Positions 10,660-59,852 of a stretch of 64,000 nt of DNA are shown here, in pieces (the stretch's first letter is position 1; each line of letters opens with the position of its first letter). The notes beneath the pieces are model-generated. The model saw nothing but the letters and a program-made list of their open reading frames with translations, searched no databases and was not told the DNA's origin. A program made the position numbers and the translations under genes. Where the stretch lies: contig NC_043003.1 in assembly GCF_006345805.1 (NCBI RefSeq), positions 111,600,001 through 111,664,000 on the forward strand, in the 5' to 3' direction. Source of the stretch: Octopus sinensis (lineage: Eukaryota).

Positions 10660-11335
10660 AAAATAAACTAGAATAATAAAATAATTAATTAATAAATATA
10701 TATTTAATATATATATATATAAGATACTAAATATACATTAAGTGAAAACTAAAAACACTACTTAAATTATTCTAAACTTTAAAATTTATTAATATACACA
10801 ATGCTAGTACAATTCATTTATATTGTAATCAAAATACGAAATGGTTCAAATATAGACAAACTCATTAAATAAGCTAACTATATAATTAATATAAATGTGT
10901 AGTATCTATAGATCTAGTATATCACTCTATAATATAGTTGACCAAATATAAATTAATATAATACATAATTATCTTAAATTTAATAATTCTTAATAAATAT
11001 ACCACCTAATAATTAAATAATAATTAAATTAAATATAATACGTTAGATCCTTTTATTAAAAAAATCTAAAAATAGAAATAAGAATAATATCTATCGTAAC
11101 TTATAACTATCAATATATATAAAAATGATATAATGGCAAGAATTATTTGCTAATGGAAAGTAAGTAACTTGTAAGCCCCATAAATTAAAGAAAGGTGCAA
11201 AACTTATTAGAACAAATGAACAATACGGTATGAAGGTTTTCAATCACAATCGCCAGTCCGCTAAATATCCAGTCAATAACAATAATAATAATAACAAATA
11301 GTAAATACCTGCTGTCTTGAAACACCCTGTATATA

Positions 11336-11384
<49 letters not shown>

Positions 11385-11464
11385 TCCCGGGTTGATTCGG
11401 GGTTAACCACAGTAAATAAGGTACTCAATACATAGCAGAGTAAAATTAATTTTTATATAGAAGG

Positions 11465-11515
11465 AGCTTCTACAGGACTAGAACTGTTTCATTCAAGAGA
11501 AATCTTCAGGAAGCT
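11465..11515 (-). ncRNA. Type I hammerhead ribozyme
   Basis: Exact reverse complement of 13045-13095. Confidence 0.85.
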
Positions 11516-12462
11516 AGTTAACAAGAATTGTTTTGGCATTTATACATTTAGGCAGGTTTAAAGGGGTGGTGGTGGGGGACTTTTTGGGGGTAGGCATAGC
11601 GCGAAAATATCATACTTGGGGGAGTGGTCAAGGAGTCAGTGGTAATTTAGATAAAATAATAAATAAAAGAATAAAAAAATATATAGAAGAATAGAGTTTT
11701 AGATAAATAAGGAGATTCTCACTTATACCTATACACATATGTATACATATATACACACACACACATATATGCATACACACATACATACACACACACACAT
11801 ATATACATACACATATATATACATACATATATCTATATAAATATATATATAAACATATATACACACACATATGCATATACATATACGCACACACATGTAT
11901 ATATACACACACGACCACACATATATATACACACAAAAAATATATACATACACACACATACGCATACACACATACACACACATATCCACATACACACATG
12001 CACACACAACACACAACACACAAGTCCCTATATACACATATATACATATACACATACATATACATATATATATACATATATATACATATATACATATGTG
12101 TACCTATACATACCTACACATACACACATATATATATACATACAAATACAAACCCATTCCCTAATTTTAATTTTTTTATCTTCATTTATTACTTTTGTTA
12201 TCTTTGACCGCTGGTCACAAGCATCTTGGCTACGACAGCAAGTCCACTTATCTTTCTACTTGAACACAAGCACTCACTCACGCACGCACACTCATTAGCA
12301 CGCACACTCACTCATTCGCACACTCATACACATACACGCACGTACGCGTTATATTCATACATACATACATCTACATACATTCACATATATACACATACGT
12401 ACGCGTACCTACAGATTCATGTCTACACGCTTAGAAGACTAGTCTATTATACACCCACATAC

Positions 12463-12512
<50 letters not shown>

Positions 12513-13044
12513 GTATATATACATACATACATACACCCATACATACATACATATATACACATACACACACCCACATGTATACATATACATACATATACAT
12601 ATATACACACACATACATACACATATACACATACACACACATACACATAAACATGCGTACCCATACACACGCACACACACGCGCATCCATATATACACAT
12701 AAGTACACACATGCGTAAAAGTATACATATATCTATACATATGCTTACACATACACACACGCGCCTCCTTATGTTCATACTTACATGCGTACTCAAAAAA
12801 TAAATAATAAAATATATAACAAAATATATATACGTGCAGTTATTCAAGAATAGAGTTATTCAACTCTATTCTTCTATATATTTTTTTATTCTTTTATTTA
12901 TTCTTTTATCTAATCTACCACTGACTCCTTGACCACTCCCCCAAGTATGATATTTTTGCGCTATGCCTACCCCCAAAAAGTCCCCCACCACCACCCCTTT
13001 AAACCTGCCTAAATGTATAAATGCCAATACAATTCTTGTTAACT

Positions 13045-13095
13045 AGCTTCCTGAAGATTTCTCTTGAATGAAACAGTTCTAGTCCTGTAGAAGCT
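13045..13095 (+). ncRNA. Type I hammerhead ribozyme
   Basis: agcttc-CTGAAGA-t-ttc(tctt)gaa-t-GAA-ACAG(ttctagtc)CTGT-A-gaagct. Stem I is 6 bp and stem III 4 bp. Cleavage is predicted after GUA at 13089. Confidence 0.85.
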
Positions 13096-13112
13096 CCTTC
13101 TATATAATAAAA

Positions 13113-13146
<34 letters not shown>

Positions 13147-14368
13147 TATATATATGTATGTATATACTCACATACGTATCTACAGTATATTCATGTATGT
13201 ATTTATTTATATCAACCCTTAGTAGCCCATATCTGCTCAGATGTATCGCATTCATAGTTTCCGTTTGTGCTGCAACCCACGAAGCTACTATTTCTATCTT
13301 ATTCAAGACATGGTGAGAGACAAATGCTTTAATATAAATTACGCCCTAAATGAAAGATAAATATGTTTGCGAATATTGTTTTGTACGAAGTCAATCCTTA
13401 TCCTCAAACATATATCGAAAACAGCAGACGTCAACATCTGATCCTCTTCTGAATGAATAAACTAGATTGCATCATTTTCTTCCATTTTAAAGAATCCATA
13501 GAAACATTTGGGGGATATTTTGAAGTTATGTGTATCTGTCCAAGGAAACGCTTAGAATATCTTTTATCGAGTTGTGCAACATAATAAGAAAACTGAAATC
13601 CATATAGAAATTTGATATAATTCTCATTGTTATTGGAATTCAGATTTCAGTTAAGATGTTTACAAATGAGACTAACCCGTGTTAGATTAACAGATTTCCA
13701 GCTGCTAGAAAAATGGAAATAAGCAATTTTCCCATAGACGATAATTTATGTGTACCATTGTATAGCATAAATGAAATCTGCGTTATTGTTAAGGATTACA
13801 GATGTCTTTGGCGGTATATTCTAAATAATTTTGTATCGTAGTGCAATTTTACTTTTATTCACATTTGTGACTAAAATTTTCTTACAGTATGCATTTTATT
13901 TTCCCCAAAAAATAATTTGATATATAAAGTTGTACAACGTAAAAAATCGTTACCATTCTAATTCTTGATTTATAATATTGAATATTTTTTGAAATAGAGC
14001 AGAATAATTTTTTTTGAAATTATTGCATATTTTTTTTCCAATTTTTTATATGAGAAGTATATACAAGTTCTATATTTAAAAGTATCCAGCTGATTTGCTT
14101 CCAGAAAATGTTGAGTGATGTCGAAATACATTGAAATACCTGCTTGACGCCAGTAAGAGTTGATAGTGCAGACGCCATCGGCATCAGTCCAGTCTTTCGT
14201 CCATCCAGATTCAACAAAATAATTGATGTGTTTATTATATTTGACACCAGTTCATCTATTTTGCTGATAACGATCTACTGGGCAACGATGAATTGGCATC
14301 ATTCACATACTGTACACACCCACAGGCACGCACGCACTCATGCACTCACAGAGACATATATCTATATC

Positions 14369-15450: not shown

Positions 15451-15840
15451 ATTAGTCTTACAAAGAACATCCCACATCCTAAACATAATATTACCAATTC
15501 AATTATATAACCCCAAAAAACAATTAACAAACCAAGATGCTCTATATCGCAAATATCCAGTAAAATAAACAACCGCCAACAGGACAGTACACAGCAAATA
15601 GCAACATTTCCATTAAAGACACATCGCATAATACAAACACTAATACAACAAAAGATTGCAACGAAATTTCATTGAAATTTCATTAAAAAAAACTGACGCA
15701 TTAAAATCAGAAAGAGTTCACACGCCGACAACTCGGATGTATAGCAGGCGATGCAGTCGAAATTTGCCTGAAATTACCCGAATAGTAACAATAATAATGA
15801 TAATAAAAATAATAATGGTAATAATAATAATAATAACAAA

Positions 15841-15917
<77 letters not shown>

Positions 15918-15922
15918 TAATA

Positions 15923-16736
15923 ATAGACAAAGAAAAATCCCAGCAATGGTTGAGAAGCTCAGGACTCAAAGCAGAAACAGAGGGAGTTTTAATTGCAGCA
16001 CAAGACCAAAGCCTCCCCACCAGAAATTACCAAAAACATGTAATGAAAAGAAATATTACAAGTAACTGCAGAATATGTGGAGATGGACAAGAAACAATAA
16101 ATCATATTATCTGTAGCTGCCCAGTCTTGGCTAAGAAGGAATATATTCACAGACATGACAGAGTTGGAACCTACATACATTGGAAGCTATGCCAACATTA
16201 TGGAATAACAACAGAAAAAAGATGGTATAGGCACACACCAGAAAAGGTCACAGAAAACGAGAAAGCAACCATACTCTGGGATATGCCGATACACACAGAT
16301 AGAGAAATTAAGGCCAACAGACCAGATATAGTTGTCAGAGATCATGAAGAAAAAAAATGCTTTCTAATTGATGTATCAATACCGGCTGATGACAACGTGT
16401 CTCTAAAAGAAATGGAGAAACTCTCAAAATACAAAGACCTGGAAATAGAGGTAACTAGAATGTGGAATCTGAAAAGAGAAACAATTCCTATCATAGTAGG
16501 TGCATTAGGCATGATAAAAAAATATTCAGACAAATACATAACAACAACACCAGGACTTACAAACACATATAACATACAGAAAATTGCACTACTAGGCACT
16601 GCACACATCCTACGCAGAACACTTTCCATACAATAACCATCAGAGCATCACAACAAATCACAGCACATACCCAAGGCACACAGAGCTGTGCTCGGTAGTG
16701 AAGTGAAAGCACGCTATAAAAATAAAACTACTGAAT
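15923..16736 (+). mobile_element. 5'-truncated R4/Dong-like RLE non-LTR retrotransposon with intact C-terminal frame and ~100 bp 3'UTR
   Basis: Open frame to the stop at 16636 with AAQDQSL, the CCHC knuckle CRICGDGQETINHIICSC, RHD, RPD...IDVSIP, KLSKY and ALLGTAHILRRTL. (TAA)n on both sides. Confidence 0.93.
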
Positions 16737-16871: not shown

Positions 16872-17411
16872 AATGCCCTGATGCAGTACCAGACAGTGGC
16901 TCTCATGGCTTCTGATCTTAACTGATTGCAAGTGTTATCATGTACATTATTTTGTCTTGGTATAAAAGATTGACTACAGCAAATATTCTGCTCAATACCA
17001 CATATTTGCTTGTCAGTTGTTTGACCTTAACCAGTTGAGCAAGTCCTTTAGTGGCTGACGATATGTGCATCTCTGATCACGAGCAGAAGTTGTGGGGGAG
17101 CATCATAGGCATGTGATGAGAAGGAATTTTGGGGTTTGAATAATTCATCTATGGAACCAGGGGTGTTTCGTTCAACATCCTTAAACTACCGTTATTCAGG
17201 GACCTTTTGCGCGAGATGGGTTGCTCGACCTGAAGAACATTCTAATGGGGCCCGTCTCTAAGGTCATGTGCTGTTTATCTTGATATGAGATCACCATGAC
17301 ACGGACATATGGTTGTGACGCATGTGCCTAGTGCACCCTTATCAGGCGGGTAGACGCGATGGGTATACAGGGCTTCGTATATTTTACCCCAGTGTCACTG
17401 CTCTCTCACTC

Positions 17412-17412
<1 letters not shown>
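16872..17412 (+). mobile_element. ~540 bp non-coding element flanked by (TAA)n
   Basis: Second full copy inverted at 26513-27068, plus a 5' fragment at 20440-20530 and a 3' fragment at 56140-56210. Ends ctctcactc(AAT)n. Confidence 0.8.
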
Positions 17413-17482
<70 letters not shown>

Positions 17483-17491
17483 GGAGAAGAA

Positions 17492-17535
<44 letters not shown>

Positions 17536-17577
17536 AGAAGAAGAAAAGCAACAACAGTAATAATAACAAGTAGTAAT

Positions 17578-22124: not shown

Positions 22125-23280
22125 CAAAATTTTTAGTCGAATGAATCGACCCCAGTACATGTTTTTAAAACTGGTACATATTTAATCAATAACTAGTGGC
22201 GAGCCGCTGCATTATGAGGGCTGAAACACGCTAAGCCCAGTTGTCAGGCCATAGTAACACAGACATGCTCACACACACACATATACAGACAGACAGACAT
22301 CCACACACCCATGCATTTGATATTTTTAATTTCGCGTGTGCGCTTTGTTTTTGATATTGTCTACACAGTATTGTAGAGTCAGTTGGGCACCGTCTGTGAT
22401 AAAAACAGCACTACGACGCAATTCATTCCGCCAGAAATTTGGATACGACATGCTGTCCGGCTCAGCATTCGCTACGGAAACACCAATAGGAACATTTCAG
22501 TGTTTGGTGTTAATCTGAGGACAGTGAAATCATAGGACATGTACCGAACGTGATAAATATCAAACATCCACCCAATATCATGGAATTTGGTGTGATCACT
22601 AGTGATCCCCCCATCCATCTCCTCACACGGCGTCAAACTCAACACGGAGGCCTACATCATATGTATGGATGTAGTACTGCTTCCCTGGATCAAGTGGGTG
22701 ACTGTTGGAAGGACCTGTCTGAAAAGGGAAATTTGTGCCATGCTACAAATGTAAAAGCCAGTCATGGCTGTCAGACATTTCCGCGACCATATCACTCCTA
22801 ACACCTGGCCATCTAACTTCACAGAATGCAACCCCTGGATTATGTGTGGGGTGCAGTTGACCAAGAAATCTCCTTGTTACACAGAATATGAACTGATGGC
22901 ACGGATTATGGCAGCATTCAACAACGTAAACACAGTGACCACCCAGAAGAGATGCAAGAGATTCAGAGGTCGTCTAGAGGACATGGTTGAAGCCAATGGC
23001 GATTTTATTGAATACATTTACTCTCTAGCATTTCAAGATATTTTTACGTAATTTTGATAAATATATGGGATGTCAATGTTATTTTCATTTTTGCGTAATT
23101 TAGATGACAGTTTATTCACCACACCCTGTATAAACATGGCGCATTTCTTTCAGTTTCTGTCAATCAAATCCACTCTCAAGGCTTTGATGGGCCAGAGTGT
23201 TTATTAGATGACCCTTCCCAAGGCGCCACACAATAGAGCTGAACACAGATCCACTCTGCAATGGTTGCATTATGAAAGTT
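22125..23280 (-). mobile_element. Degenerate SINE family A split by a mariner insertion
   Basis: 22125-22310 matches the SINE 3' half (ttagtcga...tcgacccc). 23140-23280 matches the 5' half (ctttcagtttc...aaatccactc). Confidence 0.65.
22440..23131 (+). mobile_element. 5'-truncated Tc1/mariner (maT/DD37D-like) remnant
   Basis: IKHPPNIMEFGVITSD and DHITPNTWPSNFTECNP (compare WPPSSPDLNP). The right end is cacaccctg followed by TA. Confidence 0.8.
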
Positions 23281-25974: not shown

Positions 25975-26397
25975 ACATCGTCATCGTCATCATCGCCATC
26001 GTCATCGTCATCGTCGTAATCGTCGACGTCGTCATCGTCGTCGTCGTCATAGTCATCGTCGTCATCGTCGTTGTCGTCATCATCGTCATCGCCGTCATCC
26101 TCCTCCTCCTCCTCCTCATCATCATCATCGCCATCGTCATCGTCATCATCGTCATCGTCATCGTCATCATCGCCATCGTCGTCGTCGTCGTCATCGTCCT
26201 CGTCGTCATCGTCGTCGTCGTCATCGTCGTTGTCGTCGTCATCATCGTCGTCGTCGACATCGTCATCGTTGTCATCACCATCATCATCATCATCATCATC
26301 ATCATAATCATCATCATCATCATTATTATTATCATCATCATCATCGTCATCGTCATCGTCATCGTCGTCGTCGTCGTCGTCTTCTTCAGCGTCATCG

Positions 26398-26429
<32 letters not shown>

Positions 26430-26459
26430 GTTGTTCTTGTTATATTATTATTATTATTA

Positions 26460-26490
<31 letters not shown>

Positions 26491-26512
26491 GTTCCTATTA
26501 TTATTGTTATTA
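25863..26512. repeat. Compound trinucleotide tract (ATT)/(GTT)/(CAT)/(CGT)
   Basis: Seen directly. It produces the poly-M/T and poly-S pseudo-ORFs in the track. Confidence 0.95.
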
Positions 26513-27068
26513 TTGAGTGAAAGAACAGTGCATACCATGAAACTGACACTGGTGTAAAATATACGAAGCCCAGTATACCCATCATGACTACCCGCCTGGT
26601 AAGGTTACACCAGACACATGCATCTCAACCATGTGTTCGTGATATGATGATGTCATACCAAGATATCAAGTGCATGATCTTGCAGGTGGAGCCCTGTTAG
26701 AATTTTCGTCAGCTCGAGTAGCCCATCCCACTCAAAAGGTCTCTGAATAAGTGCTGTTCAAGGATGGTGAACAAAACAACCATGTTTGAAAAAGCTGAAT
26801 TATCCAAACCTAAAATGTTCCTTTCAACACATGGCTATGATGCTCCCCCACTACTTCCGCTCGTGATCAGAGATGCACATATTGTCAGCCACCAAGAGGC
26901 ATGTGCAACTGGCTATGGTCAAACAACTGACAAGCAAATCTGTGGTATTGAGCAGAATATTTGCTGTAGCCCATCTTTTATACCAAGATAAAACAATGTA
27001 CATGATAACACTTCCAATCATTTAAGATCAGAAGCCATGAGAGCTACTGCCTTGTACTTCATCAAGGC
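26513..27068 (-). mobile_element. Second copy of the ~540 bp (TAA)n-associated non-coding element
   Basis: Reverse complement of 16872-17412 along its whole length. The 3' end runs into (TAA)n on the minus strand. Confidence 0.85.
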
Positions 27069-27109
27069 AAAGTAATGTTCAGAAGCCATGAGAGCCGCGT
27101 CTGCATGGG

Positions 27110-35177: not shown

Positions 35178-36050
35178 TATACACATATATACATACATAC
35201 ATACATTCATACATACATACATACATACATATATGCATATATATAAATATATATATATATTCTTTTATTCTTCGATATATTTAATGAGGCAGGCTTGAAT
35301 ACTAATGAATCGTATGAGCATACATTTTCTTCAAATCATTATCAGTTCATTTCACGTATTTGATTTGATTTCCATTTAACCGTAATAATATAAACGCGTT
35401 TGAAAATACACTTACATAGACATGCACATACATATATGTCCTATATCTTCATGTGTGACGAGCTAAGTTCTGGTTGCCACTAGTAAGCTGTTGAACTGAA
35501 AATAAAGTGAAATCAACTGAGATTATAGCCATCTTGAGATTGAATGAGAGAATTTCGTTTTATACGAAGTTTAATGGTGATATTTTAGACTTTGGCAACT
35601 ATGTTGAAACGCCGGACATTTTTCAAGTGAAGTGTACTCCATTCACAGCAGTGATAACTTCCTTCCAATGATAATGAGTGTAAATGTCGGTGTGAAACTA
35701 TCCCACTGATTAGTTTAAGTAGAAATAAATACATTTGAGAATGATCCAAGTGAGTCTGCTACGCAAAGAACATACAGCAATATGCAGGCAACCATACATA
35801 ATGTAATGAACCTAAAATAAGCCCAATCAATTGAAATTACACGAGTAATGACACGGAAAGTAATTAGGATTAATGAAAATTCCTGTTTAATGGGGCAACC
35901 GGGAAAACAGTCGGAGAGAGCGAATGAATCTGATCTTTCTTAGCTATGTTCATGCAGGGATTCCTTTTACATTATTGCGTGATCGTGCCGGCGAAACAGA
36001 TTCTAATATAACCTATAAGTTTTCTTTTACAGAGAATGTATACATGTATA

Positions 36051-36457
36051 GGCGCGGGTGTGGCTGTGTGGTAAGTAGCTTGTTTACCAACCACATGGTT
36101 CCGGGTTCAGTCCCACTGCGTGGCACCTTGGGCAATTGTCTTCTACTATATCCTCGGGCCGACCAATGTCTTGTGAGTGGATTTGGTAGACGGAAACTGA
36201 AAGAAACCCGTCGTATATATGTATATATATGTATGCGTGTCTATGTTTGTGTGTCTGTGTATGCCCCCCTAGTATTGCTTGACAGCCGATGCTGGTGTGT
36301 TTATGTCCCTGTTACTTAGCGGTTCGGCAAAAGAGACCGATAGAATAAGTACTGGGCTTACAAAAGAATAAGTCCCGGGGTCGAGTTGCTCGATTAAAGG
36401 TGGTGCTCCTGCATGGCCGCAGTGAAAAGACTGAAACAAGTAAAAGAGTAAAAGAGT
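36051..36457 (+). mobile_element. Full-length tRNA-derived SINE family A
   Basis: A box tggctgtgtgg, B box gggttcagtccc, an internal TA/TG tract and a (gtaaaaga)n tail. Several copies in the window. Confidence 0.92.
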
Positions 36458-36868: not shown

Positions 36869-37278
36869 CTTTTTTACTATTTTTTTCTACTTGTCTCAGT
36901 CATTTGACTGCGACCATGCTGGAGCACCGACTTTAGTCGAGCAAATCGACCCCGGGACTTATTCTTTGTAAGCCCGGTACTTATTCTATCGGTCTCTTTT
37001 GCCGAAACGGTAAGTGACGGGGACGTAAACACACCAGCATCGGTTGTCAAGCAATGCTAGGGGGACAAACACAGACACACAAACACACACACATACATAT
37101 ATATATACATATATACGACAGGTTTTTTTCAGTTTCCGTCTACCAAATCCACTCACAAGGCATTGGTCGGCCCGAGGCTATAGCAGAAGACACTTGCGCA
37201 AGGTTCCACGCAGTGGGACTGAACCCGAAACCATGTGGTTCGTTAGCAAGCTACTTACCACACAGCCACTCCTGCGCC
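36869..37278 (-). mobile_element. Full-length SINE family A, inverted relative to 36051-36457
   Basis: Reverse-complement match along its length. Confidence 0.92.
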
Positions 37279-37834
37279 TATTTATATTTTGATTTTGTAG
37301 TACATTCATAGTGCTTTAAAGTAATGCACAAACATTAAACTACTGCTAGATTCTGCGTTATCGGATAATCTCATTAAGATAAATCTAAAAGATTTTAGCC
37401 TCCCTACAAATGCTTACATATATTTTCAAAAGCACTTTTCGTTCTCAGTTTAACTTAAATTCCCTCAGCCTTTGCAGATGATTATATAAAGTTTCCCTCC
37501 ACTCAAATGTTCCCTAAATTTGAAAGGAGTGTCATTATAGCAATATTTTATTAGTATTGTCCAAAATAATTCTATCGTGCTACTTTGTACCATAAAGCAA
37601 TATACTTCATTATTTTCATTGACATGCTCCTTTCTTTATCTTGTGGATTCTAATTTATCAAAACTTTGTTCCTAATTAATGTCTGTGTCCTCTGCTGCAT
37701 GACAACGAGAGATTTTTTAACCTATTTTCCAGGCAAAATTGTTAATTAAATCATGCCACCAGTAAAAATCTCTATCAATTTTAGTTAATATTTGTGCCAG
37801 TTTCCTCTATTCTCTTTTGTTTTATATTATTCTC

Positions 37835-40058: not shown

Positions 40059-40385
40059 AACTTTGCGCTAATTAGTTGTTCAAATTTTCAAAGAATCTAA
40101 TACGTTTTTCCCCAAGAAAAAAAAAATTATAATTCTGAATTTTAAATAACATAATAAAGCAACAGTTACTTTCTTTTAAATTGTTTATCACCAAATTTAG
40201 GTGCAATTTTGAAATAACTTTTATTTAGTCAAAAATAAATGACAGAAACATTTTAAAATTTGCACTAAATAATTTGTAAAATATCTAAGTTCGTGTTAAT
40301 AAATTGGAACATTCTGCTAAGTCGAAAATTTTTTAGATGATGTAATTTGCATAATTAAGGGAAACCTTTTATTTTATCAAGGTGA
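40059..40385. repeat. ~325 bp direct repeat, copy 1
   Basis: Roughly 90% identical by eye to 42916-43239. Confidence 0.9.
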
Positions 40386-42520: not shown

Positions 42521-42915
42521 TTCAAGAAGCATATACTCGGAACGAATATATCATATAAGGCATTCAATATGTCCCTTATGCGTTCTGGTTTCAAACGCCA
42601 GCTAGATGACGTTAACAAAGTGATAAAATAGGTATTTGAACCGAAGTCGTCGAATATACTCTATAACTTTGAACTCCAGCTTTGCTGGAAAACGAATGCT
42701 ACAACTAATAAAACGCACGTGCATCAGCAATGTCTGTTTATATGCTGTCACTAAAGCAGCGGTACTCTCTTTTTTAAATTATGAAATCAATATTGAGAAA
42801 TGTTCAGCACATCTCCTTTGAGATTTGTTAACAAGTAAAATGCGTAAAATGTTATTGGATATCTGAATGAAACTCCCGAGAGAAAGTGTGAATCTCAACC
42901 TCTGATGCAGTTCAC

Positions 42916-43239
42916 AACTTTGCGCTAATTACTTCTTCAAATTTTCAAAGAATCTAATACATTTTTCTCCAACAAAAAAATTATAATTCTGAATTTTAAA
43001 TAACATAATAAAGCAACTGTTACTTTCTTTTAAATTGTTTATCACCAAATTTAGGTGCAATTTTGAAATAACTTTTATTTAGTCAAAAATAAGTGAAAGA
43101 AATTTTTTAAAAATTGCACTAAATAATGTGTAAAATATATAAGTTCGTGTTAATAAATTGGAACATTCTGCTACATCGAACATTTTTTAGATGATGTAAT
43201 TTGCATAATTAAGGGAAACATTTTATTTTAGCAAGGTGA
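42916..43239. repeat. ~325 bp direct repeat, copy 2
   Basis: Matches 40059-40385. Confidence 0.9.
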
Positions 43240-45723
43240 CTATGTATGAACATGCATCCATTTACTATCTGCATCTTATTTATTTATTTTTTCTTTTGCA
43301 TTTCTCTCACAAATCATTCGTTTTCTCAAGCTCCTAATGTCAAATTCGTTTATTTTCTCACAGTATGCTCTACTTTTCATTTTCTTTCATTATACAAAAC
43401 ACGAAACCTGATTTAACAGCTTTATTTATTACTATATTTTTTCTGCAGTTTTCGTTTAATACAAATGACGTTTCTGTCTTGTCTTTGATATTCGGAAACC
43501 ATTCTGTTGTTTCCCCACCTCTTGTATAAGTTAGTTTCTCTAATGCATTTAATTCCTATTTTTTAATCATTGTAATATATTAAGGCAGTCCTTTAGTGCT
43601 TTTCATATTCCTGTATGAGACGACGCTAATCTTTCCCTTAGATTGCATTTGGGTATTTTCTATTTTACCATTATTTGTCTGTACTGTTCGCCTTTTAAAC
43701 GAAGCCCTGCACTCACTCTGATTAGAGTTTATATATGCTATCTTTATCAGCTTTAGGTTGGTTCCAAGTAAGTTTGTAGAAGAACTCTCATTCACTACCT
43801 TCCAATTTCTTAGACTGAAACTGTAGTTTACAACTATGGTAGCTAGTGATTTTATACTCATATGTTTTATTACATATGCTTAAATGCGTTATTCAAAATA
43901 TAGAAATATTAATTTTTTATTTCCAACACAGAAGATCAAAGTATTTGTTTCTTTGAAAAATTGAAATAATCACCTCAGAGTTGTGAACTATATGGAATGT
44001 TAAGCTCCATAATTCCTCACATGAGTTTCATTCCTGCATTTCATGATGGTTTATATTTTTTTTGTTTTTTTTAATGAATCTTAACAGAAAATATCCAAAT
44101 ATTTTACAATTGATTACGTAATTTGAAAAAGAAATTCCACTGGTTTACTCACATCTTATAAACTAGCATTAAAATTACTTGTTCCTCATGTAATCTGTTA
44201 TTCTTTTACGGTTTCAGTATTTGGTTTTGTGGTCATGCAAGAGTTCTTACATTATAACATATAATGTTCAATGCTTAATGTCAGCTTGACTTCCTTTCTG
44301 ATTCTTCTCTTTCCTTTCACTACGTTGCAGTGGATGATTCTACTTTATTATTCTCTGCTTTCAACGTGTGACTCTATTTTCCATTATCAGGCTTAATCAA
44401 TTTCCTTTTCATACTAATTTTAAGAAATTGTTTACTCCTATACACATTTTATTTCCCAGGTGAGTTTATGAAAACTTTTCCATGCTGATTATGAAATGTG
44501 ATAAATAGTTTTAATTCAACCTTATTAAAGAGATATATTACCATCTATTTTTAACATGTGGCTGCTTCCGTTCAAGAGGTGTGTTAGTGACGGATAAGTG
44601 AGAAAATAGTAGAAAGGATACGTTTTCGCTCGGAGCGATTACTGATATTAGTTTAAATAATTTTCTTTTGCTTTCTTTTTGTGGGCATTTTCCATATTAG
44701 AAATATATGCTTGGTGTCTAGTGTTAGCAATGTGCTAATTATTTTTATCGAATGTTTAAAATTTCTAAGAGCATCGGGTCATATTATTTTGTTTTTCGTT
44801 CATTAACACCTAAACTAGCTTTCATTTACCCTTGTTTATTCTAATTGTGTTAGCTAGCAGATATTCTTCACTGTCATGAAACCATTTTTAGTACACTTTC
44901 GGCTCCTCTGTTAAACAGTTATTGTGGTTCCAAGTGAGCTGAAAGTGTATTGGAGAATATCGACGTAAGGGATTTGTAGATTTTGGGGAACAATTCTATA
45001 GACTTGTAATATGGATACTCTACTGTGTTTTGCTTTTAAGAATTTAGGATTATCAGAGCCATTACGTTGCCATTTGTGATTTTTACAATCATAAATCCTC
45101 AAAACCCCATAGCTTCTTCATCCATTAATCTAAGCAAACATATATTTCCCAAGCTCACGAACGATCAGATTTATCACTGCGGGCGTATTTGAAAATAATT
45201 CAGATCATATATTATTGTTTCCTGGAAGAAGTAGATTTTATAATCTAATATACATGACGGGTTCGATTCTTAATTTATCTATCCTATATTTTAACTCGTG
45301 TTATTTTTTTGTTTATTCTATGCTGGCAACTTTTCTATTGAGTAATGCTATTTGCTTTACTAAATCACAAACCGTTTTGTTGTGAATATGCATACGTTTG
45401 GAAAACTGCTTAACAGGGTAATAGAAGTCAAAAAGCGTAAATCTGTGCATTGTTCTCTCCTTTGCATATACAACTGGTAATCCATATTGGCCTTTAAGAG
45501 GACAACTCTTTAATATACATCTACAAATCATGTATTATTTCAGTGCCTTTGAAGCATTTTAACGAGTTGTGATAGATGGCTTCTAGGTTTCACGTTGTCA
45601 GCTGTTTTAAATATTGCATAACGCCAAGAGGAAAAGCGATCGGATTTACCGGCAACCACGAAACGGTGTTACTTGTATTATTGACATGGAAAGTGCTATG
45701 CGCGTATACAGAATGAATACTGA

Positions 45724-59508: not shown

Positions 59509-59852
59509 CATATTATAATTAAGGGCTAAAGAAGGTTATTCTATAGCCAATACCCTGATTATCCACTTATAATCCACTTGTTACGGGAAAATTGAACTGA
59601 AAGCGGGCAACTAACCTTTAGAAAATTTAAATTTCGTTATCTCTATATTGAATCAATTTCGGAATTAATCCCTATAAAGGATATATTCTTCTTCAGTAGA
59701 GCTTTCGAGGGAACATAAATAAATTACTCACATGCGGTCATGGAAAAAGCAGAAGCTAAAAACACAAATACATTTAAGTTAATATACTGCCACACTTTTT
59801 GATGGAATCCTTCCTTTTCTCTAGAGGAAGGGACTTCATCCTATATTGTTAG

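Follow-up and report, generated by a model that had tools for sequence, protein, structure and literature searches.

The window analysed here, a 64-kb stretch of DNA, contains no N, has a G+C content of ~32%, and is rich in microsatellites and repeat fragments, as in an animal genome. Within it, at 11383-13110, lies an element with two inverted arms (11450-11698 on the minus strand and 12862-13110 on the plus strand), each 249 nt long and identical to one another at 243 of 249 positions (6 mismatches, 97.6%). The inter-arm distance of 1163 nt comprises a 'spacer' of 1141 nt (11699-12839) and a junction insert of 22 nt (12840-12861). A tail of 67 nt (11383-11449, minus strand) is attached to the left arm alone and occurs only once in the window. 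Tandem TA is found on both sides of the element, at 11330-11382 (27 copies, 96% matches) and at 13101-13166, with 11330-11382 and 13111-13166 as the left and right sides of the likely target. A type I hammerhead motif of 51 nt is common to the two arms, at 13045-13095 on the plus strand and, identically, at 11515-11465 on the minus strand, the two pointing outward. A preliminary description of this DNA had reported most of this layout, i.e. inverted arms of 246 bp and ~98% identity (a length that ends just before a slip at 13108), ~1.15 kb of CA/TA-rich sequence free of ORFs between them, a ~70 bp tail on the left arm only, (TA)n at both ends, and one hammerhead per arm on opposite strands. 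These features are borne out with the lengths given above, and the young age then proposed is supported by the identity of the arms. The junction insert was absent from that description.

The long frames of the element are CA/TA tracts in translation and no credible ORF is present; an ATG-led frame running out through the tail was likewise not found. On the plus strand the spacer is composed of 476 A, 307 T, 291 C and 67 G, with one strand bias throughout. No target-site duplication is readable inside the (TA)n, and no additional copy of the arm family occurs elsewhere in the 64 kb. On the minus strand the tail ends 3 nt beyond a 4-bp stem with an A/C-rich loop (11386-11401), which resembles the A/C-rich stem-loop reported at the start of reverse transcription (RT) in the anole Poseidon (PMC11167929); its predicted fold is no better than that of shuffles (z -0.66).

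Other repeats are present in the window. A 3' fragment of a non-LTR retrotransposon ORF lies at 15644-16636 on the plus strand, adjoining a long (AAT)n tract. Pfam, applied to 10 of the window's 88 long frames, gave no domain of Penelope-like elements (PLEs) and one match, to zf-RVT at 15929-16633 (E 8.8e-06, below the curated cut-off). An inverted pair of 414 nt and 88.6% identity at 36048-36456 and 36869-37281 seems to represent a dispersed short repeat present there twice, with further copies near 23144, 29549, 52626, 59232 and 59893. A direct repeat of 327 nt (40059-40385 and 42916-43239, 93.6%, ~2.5 kb apart) overlaps a weak inverted repeat at 42736-43015 and 43877-44163, and a ~690-nt repeat on opposite strands (16874-17545 and 26382-27069, 81%) lies beside long trinucleotide tracts.

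Within the junction insert, 12846-12857 is exactly complementary, in reverse, to the start of the right arm at 12862-12873, so that the two form a hairpin of 12 bp closed by a 4-nt loop, and in the window this 12-mer is found only at 11687, at 12846 and, reversed, at 12862; its expected number near the joint by chance is ~1e-5. A 10-mer is also repeated at 12838 and 12854. Since the 12-mer matches the arm start, the insert looks to have been templated from the arm's own end. The same 12 nt (11687-11698 and 12846-12857) form the only direct repeat in the element and flank the spacer, as they would had a perfect arm-loop-arm palindrome later been split by an insertion of 1.15 kb with a 12-bp target duplication. 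Such a history is very improbable, being largely refuted by copies of the family elsewhere, in which the first letters of the spacer follow the arm and thus appear native to it; the spacer ends, moreover, carry neither poly(A) nor a terminal repeat.

Information about these other copies can be drawn from contigs of public sequencing runs. Part of the element is contained in 21 of the 24 runs listed, under four organism labels and in one marine metatranscriptome (a small share). Positions 12680-13110 (431 of 1728 nt) were aligned to contigs of four runs, X1, X2, X4 and X9, with 11713-12679 and run X20 (share 0.05) lying outside the alignment; X9 is an RNA run by guess only, and the best-matching run may be the window's own sample. 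Contigs aligned in the four runs number 13095, 2754, 1483 and 407, with a likeness of 85-100%, which points to a large and diverse arm family. The contigs are short, and none spans the element or links the two ends of the spacer.

Among the contigs listed, loose ends before 12862 are displayed by seven in X2, six in X4 and four in X9, and by none in X1. Compared by eye with the window, these loose ends match the sequence from 11699 onward on the minus strand, at 14 of the last 15 letters in X2, 8 of the last 9 in X4 and 17 of 20 in X9. Other copies of the arm therefore pass directly into the first letters of the spacer, so that the arm is no natural unit around foreign DNA. The far end of the spacer (12680-12815) is covered by diverged contigs in all four runs, among them record 17 of X4 and record 1 of X1, and the spacer island at 12746-12818 by records 9 and 10 of X2 and record 18 of X4. 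Variants at 12764 and 12776 are common to the four runs. Under Markov models trained on the window flanks, five 31-mers of 12695-12815 would match by chance 0.002-4 times per 1e9 bases; near-matches to the spacer 31-mers in the rest of the window number zero, in a window too small to serve as a control for a large genome. With the arm continuing into the spacer start, and the far spacer itself repeated, the right arm probably represents a shorter member, truncated at its 5' end, of the family to which the left copy belongs, and the spacer likely the upstream, CA/TA-rich body of the arm's own repeat family, read on the minus strand.

In X2 and X4, which bear two organism labels, the outer half of the loose-end consensus at 12862 is a different string, common to both runs and unrelated to the window's spacer, which indicates that the arm has one or more further upstream contexts; candidates are a different subfamily, an ORF-proximal end and a shared site of insertion. 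It bears on the possibility that the arms are PLE ends and the spacer partly captured host DNA or another repeat, or that two insertions lie back to back. Captured spacers and cargo flanked by pseudo-LTRs (pLTRs) are on record, e.g. in Pen1_Av, where spacers of 0.9-1.5 kb are captured host DNA (PMC3846280), and the contig evidence comes from the two ends of the spacer. The near spacer end nonetheless follows the arm in other copies in three of the four runs, a single strand bias (C 291, G 67) extends over the whole spacer, the joint seems to have had the start of the arm itself as template, and there is one tail only, so that capture or a double insertion is unlikely here.

The joints in other copies vary. 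Two X1 contigs run beyond 12839 into further CA/TA sequence that is not the window's insert. In X1 and X2, go-back joints lead from 12759/12760 to 12688/12680 and from 12843/12846 to 12777-12785, which suggest tandem subrepeats of ~60-80 nt within 12680-12846 whose number would vary among copies. Loose ends before 13045 (25 contigs in X1 and five in X4) read as an inverted start of the hammerhead, so that head-to-head joints appear to form at another breakpoint too; one X1 contig has a joint from 13106 to 13045 that may be tandem. The 13045 breakpoint is a self-complementary 4-mer that opens stem I of the hammerhead. A possible breakpoint hotspot at the start of stem I might yield very short ribozyme foldbacks or tandems. 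This variety weighs against the view that the arm-spacer-arm unit moves as a non-autonomous family of its own, with inverted ribozymes. The youth and near identity of the arms and the presence of both spacer ends in other copies are consistent with such a family, and 12846-12857 could be the remnant of a direct pLTR in an inverted-direct-body-direct layout, as described in PMC3846280. The joints of other copies differ from those in the window, however (inverted at 13045, past 12839, or going back at 12759/12760 and 12843/12846), and RNA read through the unit would fold into a long duplex and presumably serve poorly as a template; mobility of the unit as a whole is, in our estimate, quite unlikely.

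Summed contig depth over 12845-12859 is 875, 470, 0 and 0 in the four runs, contig depth being no measure of copy number and zero cover no proof of absence. For comparison, depth is 2e3-5e5 at 12785-12799 and 3e4-2e6 at 12995-13009, values that would fit a rare junction and are not evidence for one. Position 12915 carries a change private to the right arm, the left arm's letter being present in nearly all of the aligned depth. A foldback artefact of assembly or library is scarcely credible, given this private change, the 6 differences between the arms and the lack of N in the window, even if tandem and inverted PLE insertions are reported to trouble short-read assemblies (PMC8557442) and the stretch is spanned by none of the listed contigs. 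Metagenome contigs returned no match for a degenerate hammerhead pattern or for a 20-nt motif of the tail.

In a type I hammerhead, three stems surround a core of consensus CUGANGA, GAAA and NUH. When the window was scanned on both strands with a descriptor, the two arm motifs were recovered, with a stem I of 6 bp, and a weaker match with 5 bp at 59696; none of 20 dinucleotide shuffles gave a match with a stem I of at least 6 bp. In the right arm, using the numbering of PMC4209133, the core letters are complete (C3-A9 at 13051-13057, G12-A15.1 at 13070-13073, U16.1 and A17 at 13088 and 13089), with cleavage predicted after 13089, at GUA; in the long copy the predicted cut falls between 11471 and 11470. 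Stem I is 6 bp, stem II is 3 bp, and a short stem III bears a partly self-complementary loop. The closing pair of stem II (13058/13069) is U-U in both arms rather than the G10.1-C11.1 pair called highly conserved in PMC4209133. In the aligned contigs of the four runs, only one site within 13045-13095 varies at more than 5%, namely 13055, which is N7, the free core position. Because no variant above 5% is listed for the U-U pair, U-U at 10.1/11.1 appears to be the usual state of the arm's family and not decay of this copy. No published report of a measured effect of U-U at these positions was found.

Searches with RNA family models, which had been put forward in the preliminary description, did not recover the motif. 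Rfam gave no match at the gathering threshold over the whole window and no hammerhead family at E up to 10 over 11200-13300, where 100 weak matches were mostly to microRNA models on CA/TA tracts; of three weak matches in 13000-13105, none is a hammerhead. The predicted fold of the motif is no more stable than that of shuffles (z 0.17). With flanks included, the active fold is absent from the minimum-energy structure, having lost to a hairpin over the cut site, and the exact active fold accounts for 1.8% of the ensemble of the 51-nt motif (-7.3 vs -8.5 kcal/mol). Two copies of stem III and its loop, by contrast, are predicted to pair at -12.8 kcal/mol vs -1.4 for the hairpin, and co-folding of two motifs gives -27.0 vs 2 x -8.5 kcal/mol. 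In these models the motif looks like a hammerhead of the dimer- or protein-dependent type, and a free motif would probably cut only with the help of a protein or of a second copy in trans. The two motifs of the element cannot form a dimer in cis because they are on opposite strands. Dimer-dependent hammerheads of metazoan PLEs are reported to cut weakly in vitro (PMC4209133), and that of the anole Poseidon to be protein-assisted and dispensable for insertion in vitro (PMC11167929). The earlier label 'intact' thus holds for the core letters, but not for the closing pair of stem II or for the fold, which is predicted to be active in ~2% of the ensemble.

Transcription through the whole element would produce the antisense motif first and the sense motif second. 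The arm-arm duplex of such an RNA is predicted at -434 kcal/mol, and already at -345 kcal/mol once synthesis has reached 13060; the motif and its antisense alone pair at -93 kcal/mol, vs ~-8 for the ribozyme. The preliminary description had envisaged a read-through hairpin RNA that self-cleaves near its 3' end, and also a double-stranded stem competing with the hammerhead fold. Predicted energies support the competition, in which the duplex so far outweighs the ribozyme, even before the core is fully transcribed, that self-cleavage of the hairpin is predicted not to occur, and the self-cleaving hairpin was rejected. A read-through RNA is predicted to zip into a 249-bp duplex that blocks cleavage, and the motif to be free only in RNA that starts inside the element. 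If the locus is read through, the outcome could plausibly be a long duplex accessible to editing or to processing into small RNAs.

Taken together, the locus is quite probably the product of one insertion of a high-copy, Penelope-like (PLE-type) family into (TA)n, in which two 5'-truncated copies were joined head to head. The long copy is likely 11383-12839 (minus strand, 1457 nt), which is tailed and has the left arm as its 3' pLTR-like part, and the short copy likely 12862-13110 (plus strand, 249 nt), inverted and tailless. The element displays a hammerhead near the 3' end inside a terminal repeat, an inverted 5'-truncated copy at the 5' end, a tail at one end only (67 nt), a palindrome at the inverted junction (the 12-bp hairpin at 12846-12873) and an AT-rich or (TA)n target. 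Of the partial direct tandems that make up pLTRs, the element shows the 12-nt repeat alone, and the possible tandem in other copies is that of the X1 contig joined from 13106 to 13045. Judged by the five marks it is likely a PLE-type copy, assigned to no clade, as an RT/GIY-YIG ORF is not tied to the family. The absence of a telomerase-like RT or GIY-YIG ORF from this copy is as expected if it is truncated or non-autonomous.

Each of these marks has precedent. An inverted 5'-truncated copy beside the 5' end, hammerheads in pLTRs and (TA)n targets are described as typical of PLEs, with a tail of 30-40 bp that is often at one end only (PMC8557442, including Fig. 2), and inverted pLTRs and 3' extensions serve as marks by which PLEs are recognised (PMC8969392). 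The inverted pLTR has been reported to overlap the direct one by 15 bp, and the inverted junction is often palindromic, which was explained by self-priming (PMC3846280). Dual minimal hammerheads on opposite strands, ~100-700 bp apart, were reported in 2014 (PMC4209133). The Penelope-like origin proposed at the outset is accordingly well matched by the inverted pLTR, one-sided tail, junction palindrome and (TA)n target. The suggestion that inverted ribozymes mark a distinct kind of element is not supported, since their layout is drawn as typical of PLE insertions in Fig. 2 of PMC8557442 and is also described in PMC3846280 and PMC4209133; and 'non-autonomous' is true of this ORF-less copy, to which the claim is confined.

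As to mechanism, the TA tract may have been nicked by a PLE protein supplied in trans. Reverse transcription could then have begun at two nearby sites on family RNA, the tail end and a site ~67 nt inside, both products would have stopped early, and their ends may have been joined by snap-back and templated synthesis that left the 22-nt insert. The inverted ribozymes would be a by-product of the joining. In the literature such a structure has alternatively been ascribed to self-priming on an antisense template. A PLE protein is reported to cut and extend both strands, with two adjacent RT start sites bounding the tail (PMC11167929), inversion itself not being modelled in the accessible part of that work. 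The arm ends are separated by 67 nt, in keeping with the two start sites observed in vitro, which they may record, and the 22-nt templated joint would preserve the mode by which the inverted copy was attached.

The element is real and most likely ordinary in kind, illustrating cleanly a PLE insertion pattern that is already known. Taken alone the locus is of little importance, with a modest value as a record of mechanism. What novelty is left is at the level of the family, in the fixed U-U, the possible breakpoint hotspot at stem I and, possibly, an ORF-less parent. A fixed U-U together with repeated head-to-head joints at stem I would make a cheap test bed for the role of PLE hammerheads. It is a doubtful proposal that the parent is a very abundant, ORF-less PLE derivative of at least 1.5 kb, mostly CA/TA body, with a dimer-only U10.1-U11.1 hammerhead and a breakpoint hotspot at stem I that seeds foldbacks; if true, ribozyme foldbacks across the genome would be a standing source of long double-stranded RNA. 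No published description of this particular family was found, repeat databases and closed journals being beyond reach, and the family may already be named in repeat libraries (Repbase or Dfam). Short motifs of the family are absent from one supplement file each of PMC8557442 and PMC13282606.

Several known systems resemble the element in part. With the endonuclease-bearing PLEs Penelope/Poseidon, Neptune, Nematis and Hydra (PMC8557442, Figs. 1-2; PMC3846280) it shares the hammerhead near the 3' end, the one-ended tail, the inverted 5'-truncated copy, the palindromic inverted junction and the AT-rich or (TA)n target. Unlike these, this copy is ORF-less, its tail is 67 nt rather than 30-40, and a low-complexity CA/TA body lies upstream of the arm; unlike in Penelope/Poseidon elements (as far as described in PMC3846280 and PMC11167929), no ATG-led frame exits through the tail. 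The motif resembles the minimal or atypical type I hammerheads of metazoan PLEs (PMC4209133) in its full core, short stem III, partly palindromic loop, predicted dimer fold and nearby opposite-strand pairing, and differs from those described there in having U-U for G10.1-C11.1, a stem II of 3 bp vs 6-8 bp, and arms 1.5 kb apart vs 100-700 bp for the published pairs.

Animal non-LTR retrozymes (PMC7229834; bioRxiv 10.64898/2026.07.22.740005) are similarly non-coding, carry a type I hammerhead and are tied to PLE pLTRs. They are reported in the same sources to consist of direct tandem repeats of ~170-400 nt with two same-strand ribozymes, to release circular RNA and to be abundant as linear and circular monomer RNAs. 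The motifs of the element, unlike theirs, occupy opposite strands, from which no monomer can be excised, and retrozyme membership was rejected, the motifs being 1.5 kb apart on opposite strands and not in same-strand direct tandem units. Naiad PLEs share with it (TA)n targets and inverted, tailed insertions, and differ in that they are reported to lack canonical hammerheads (PMC8557442), whereas the present family retains the full core.
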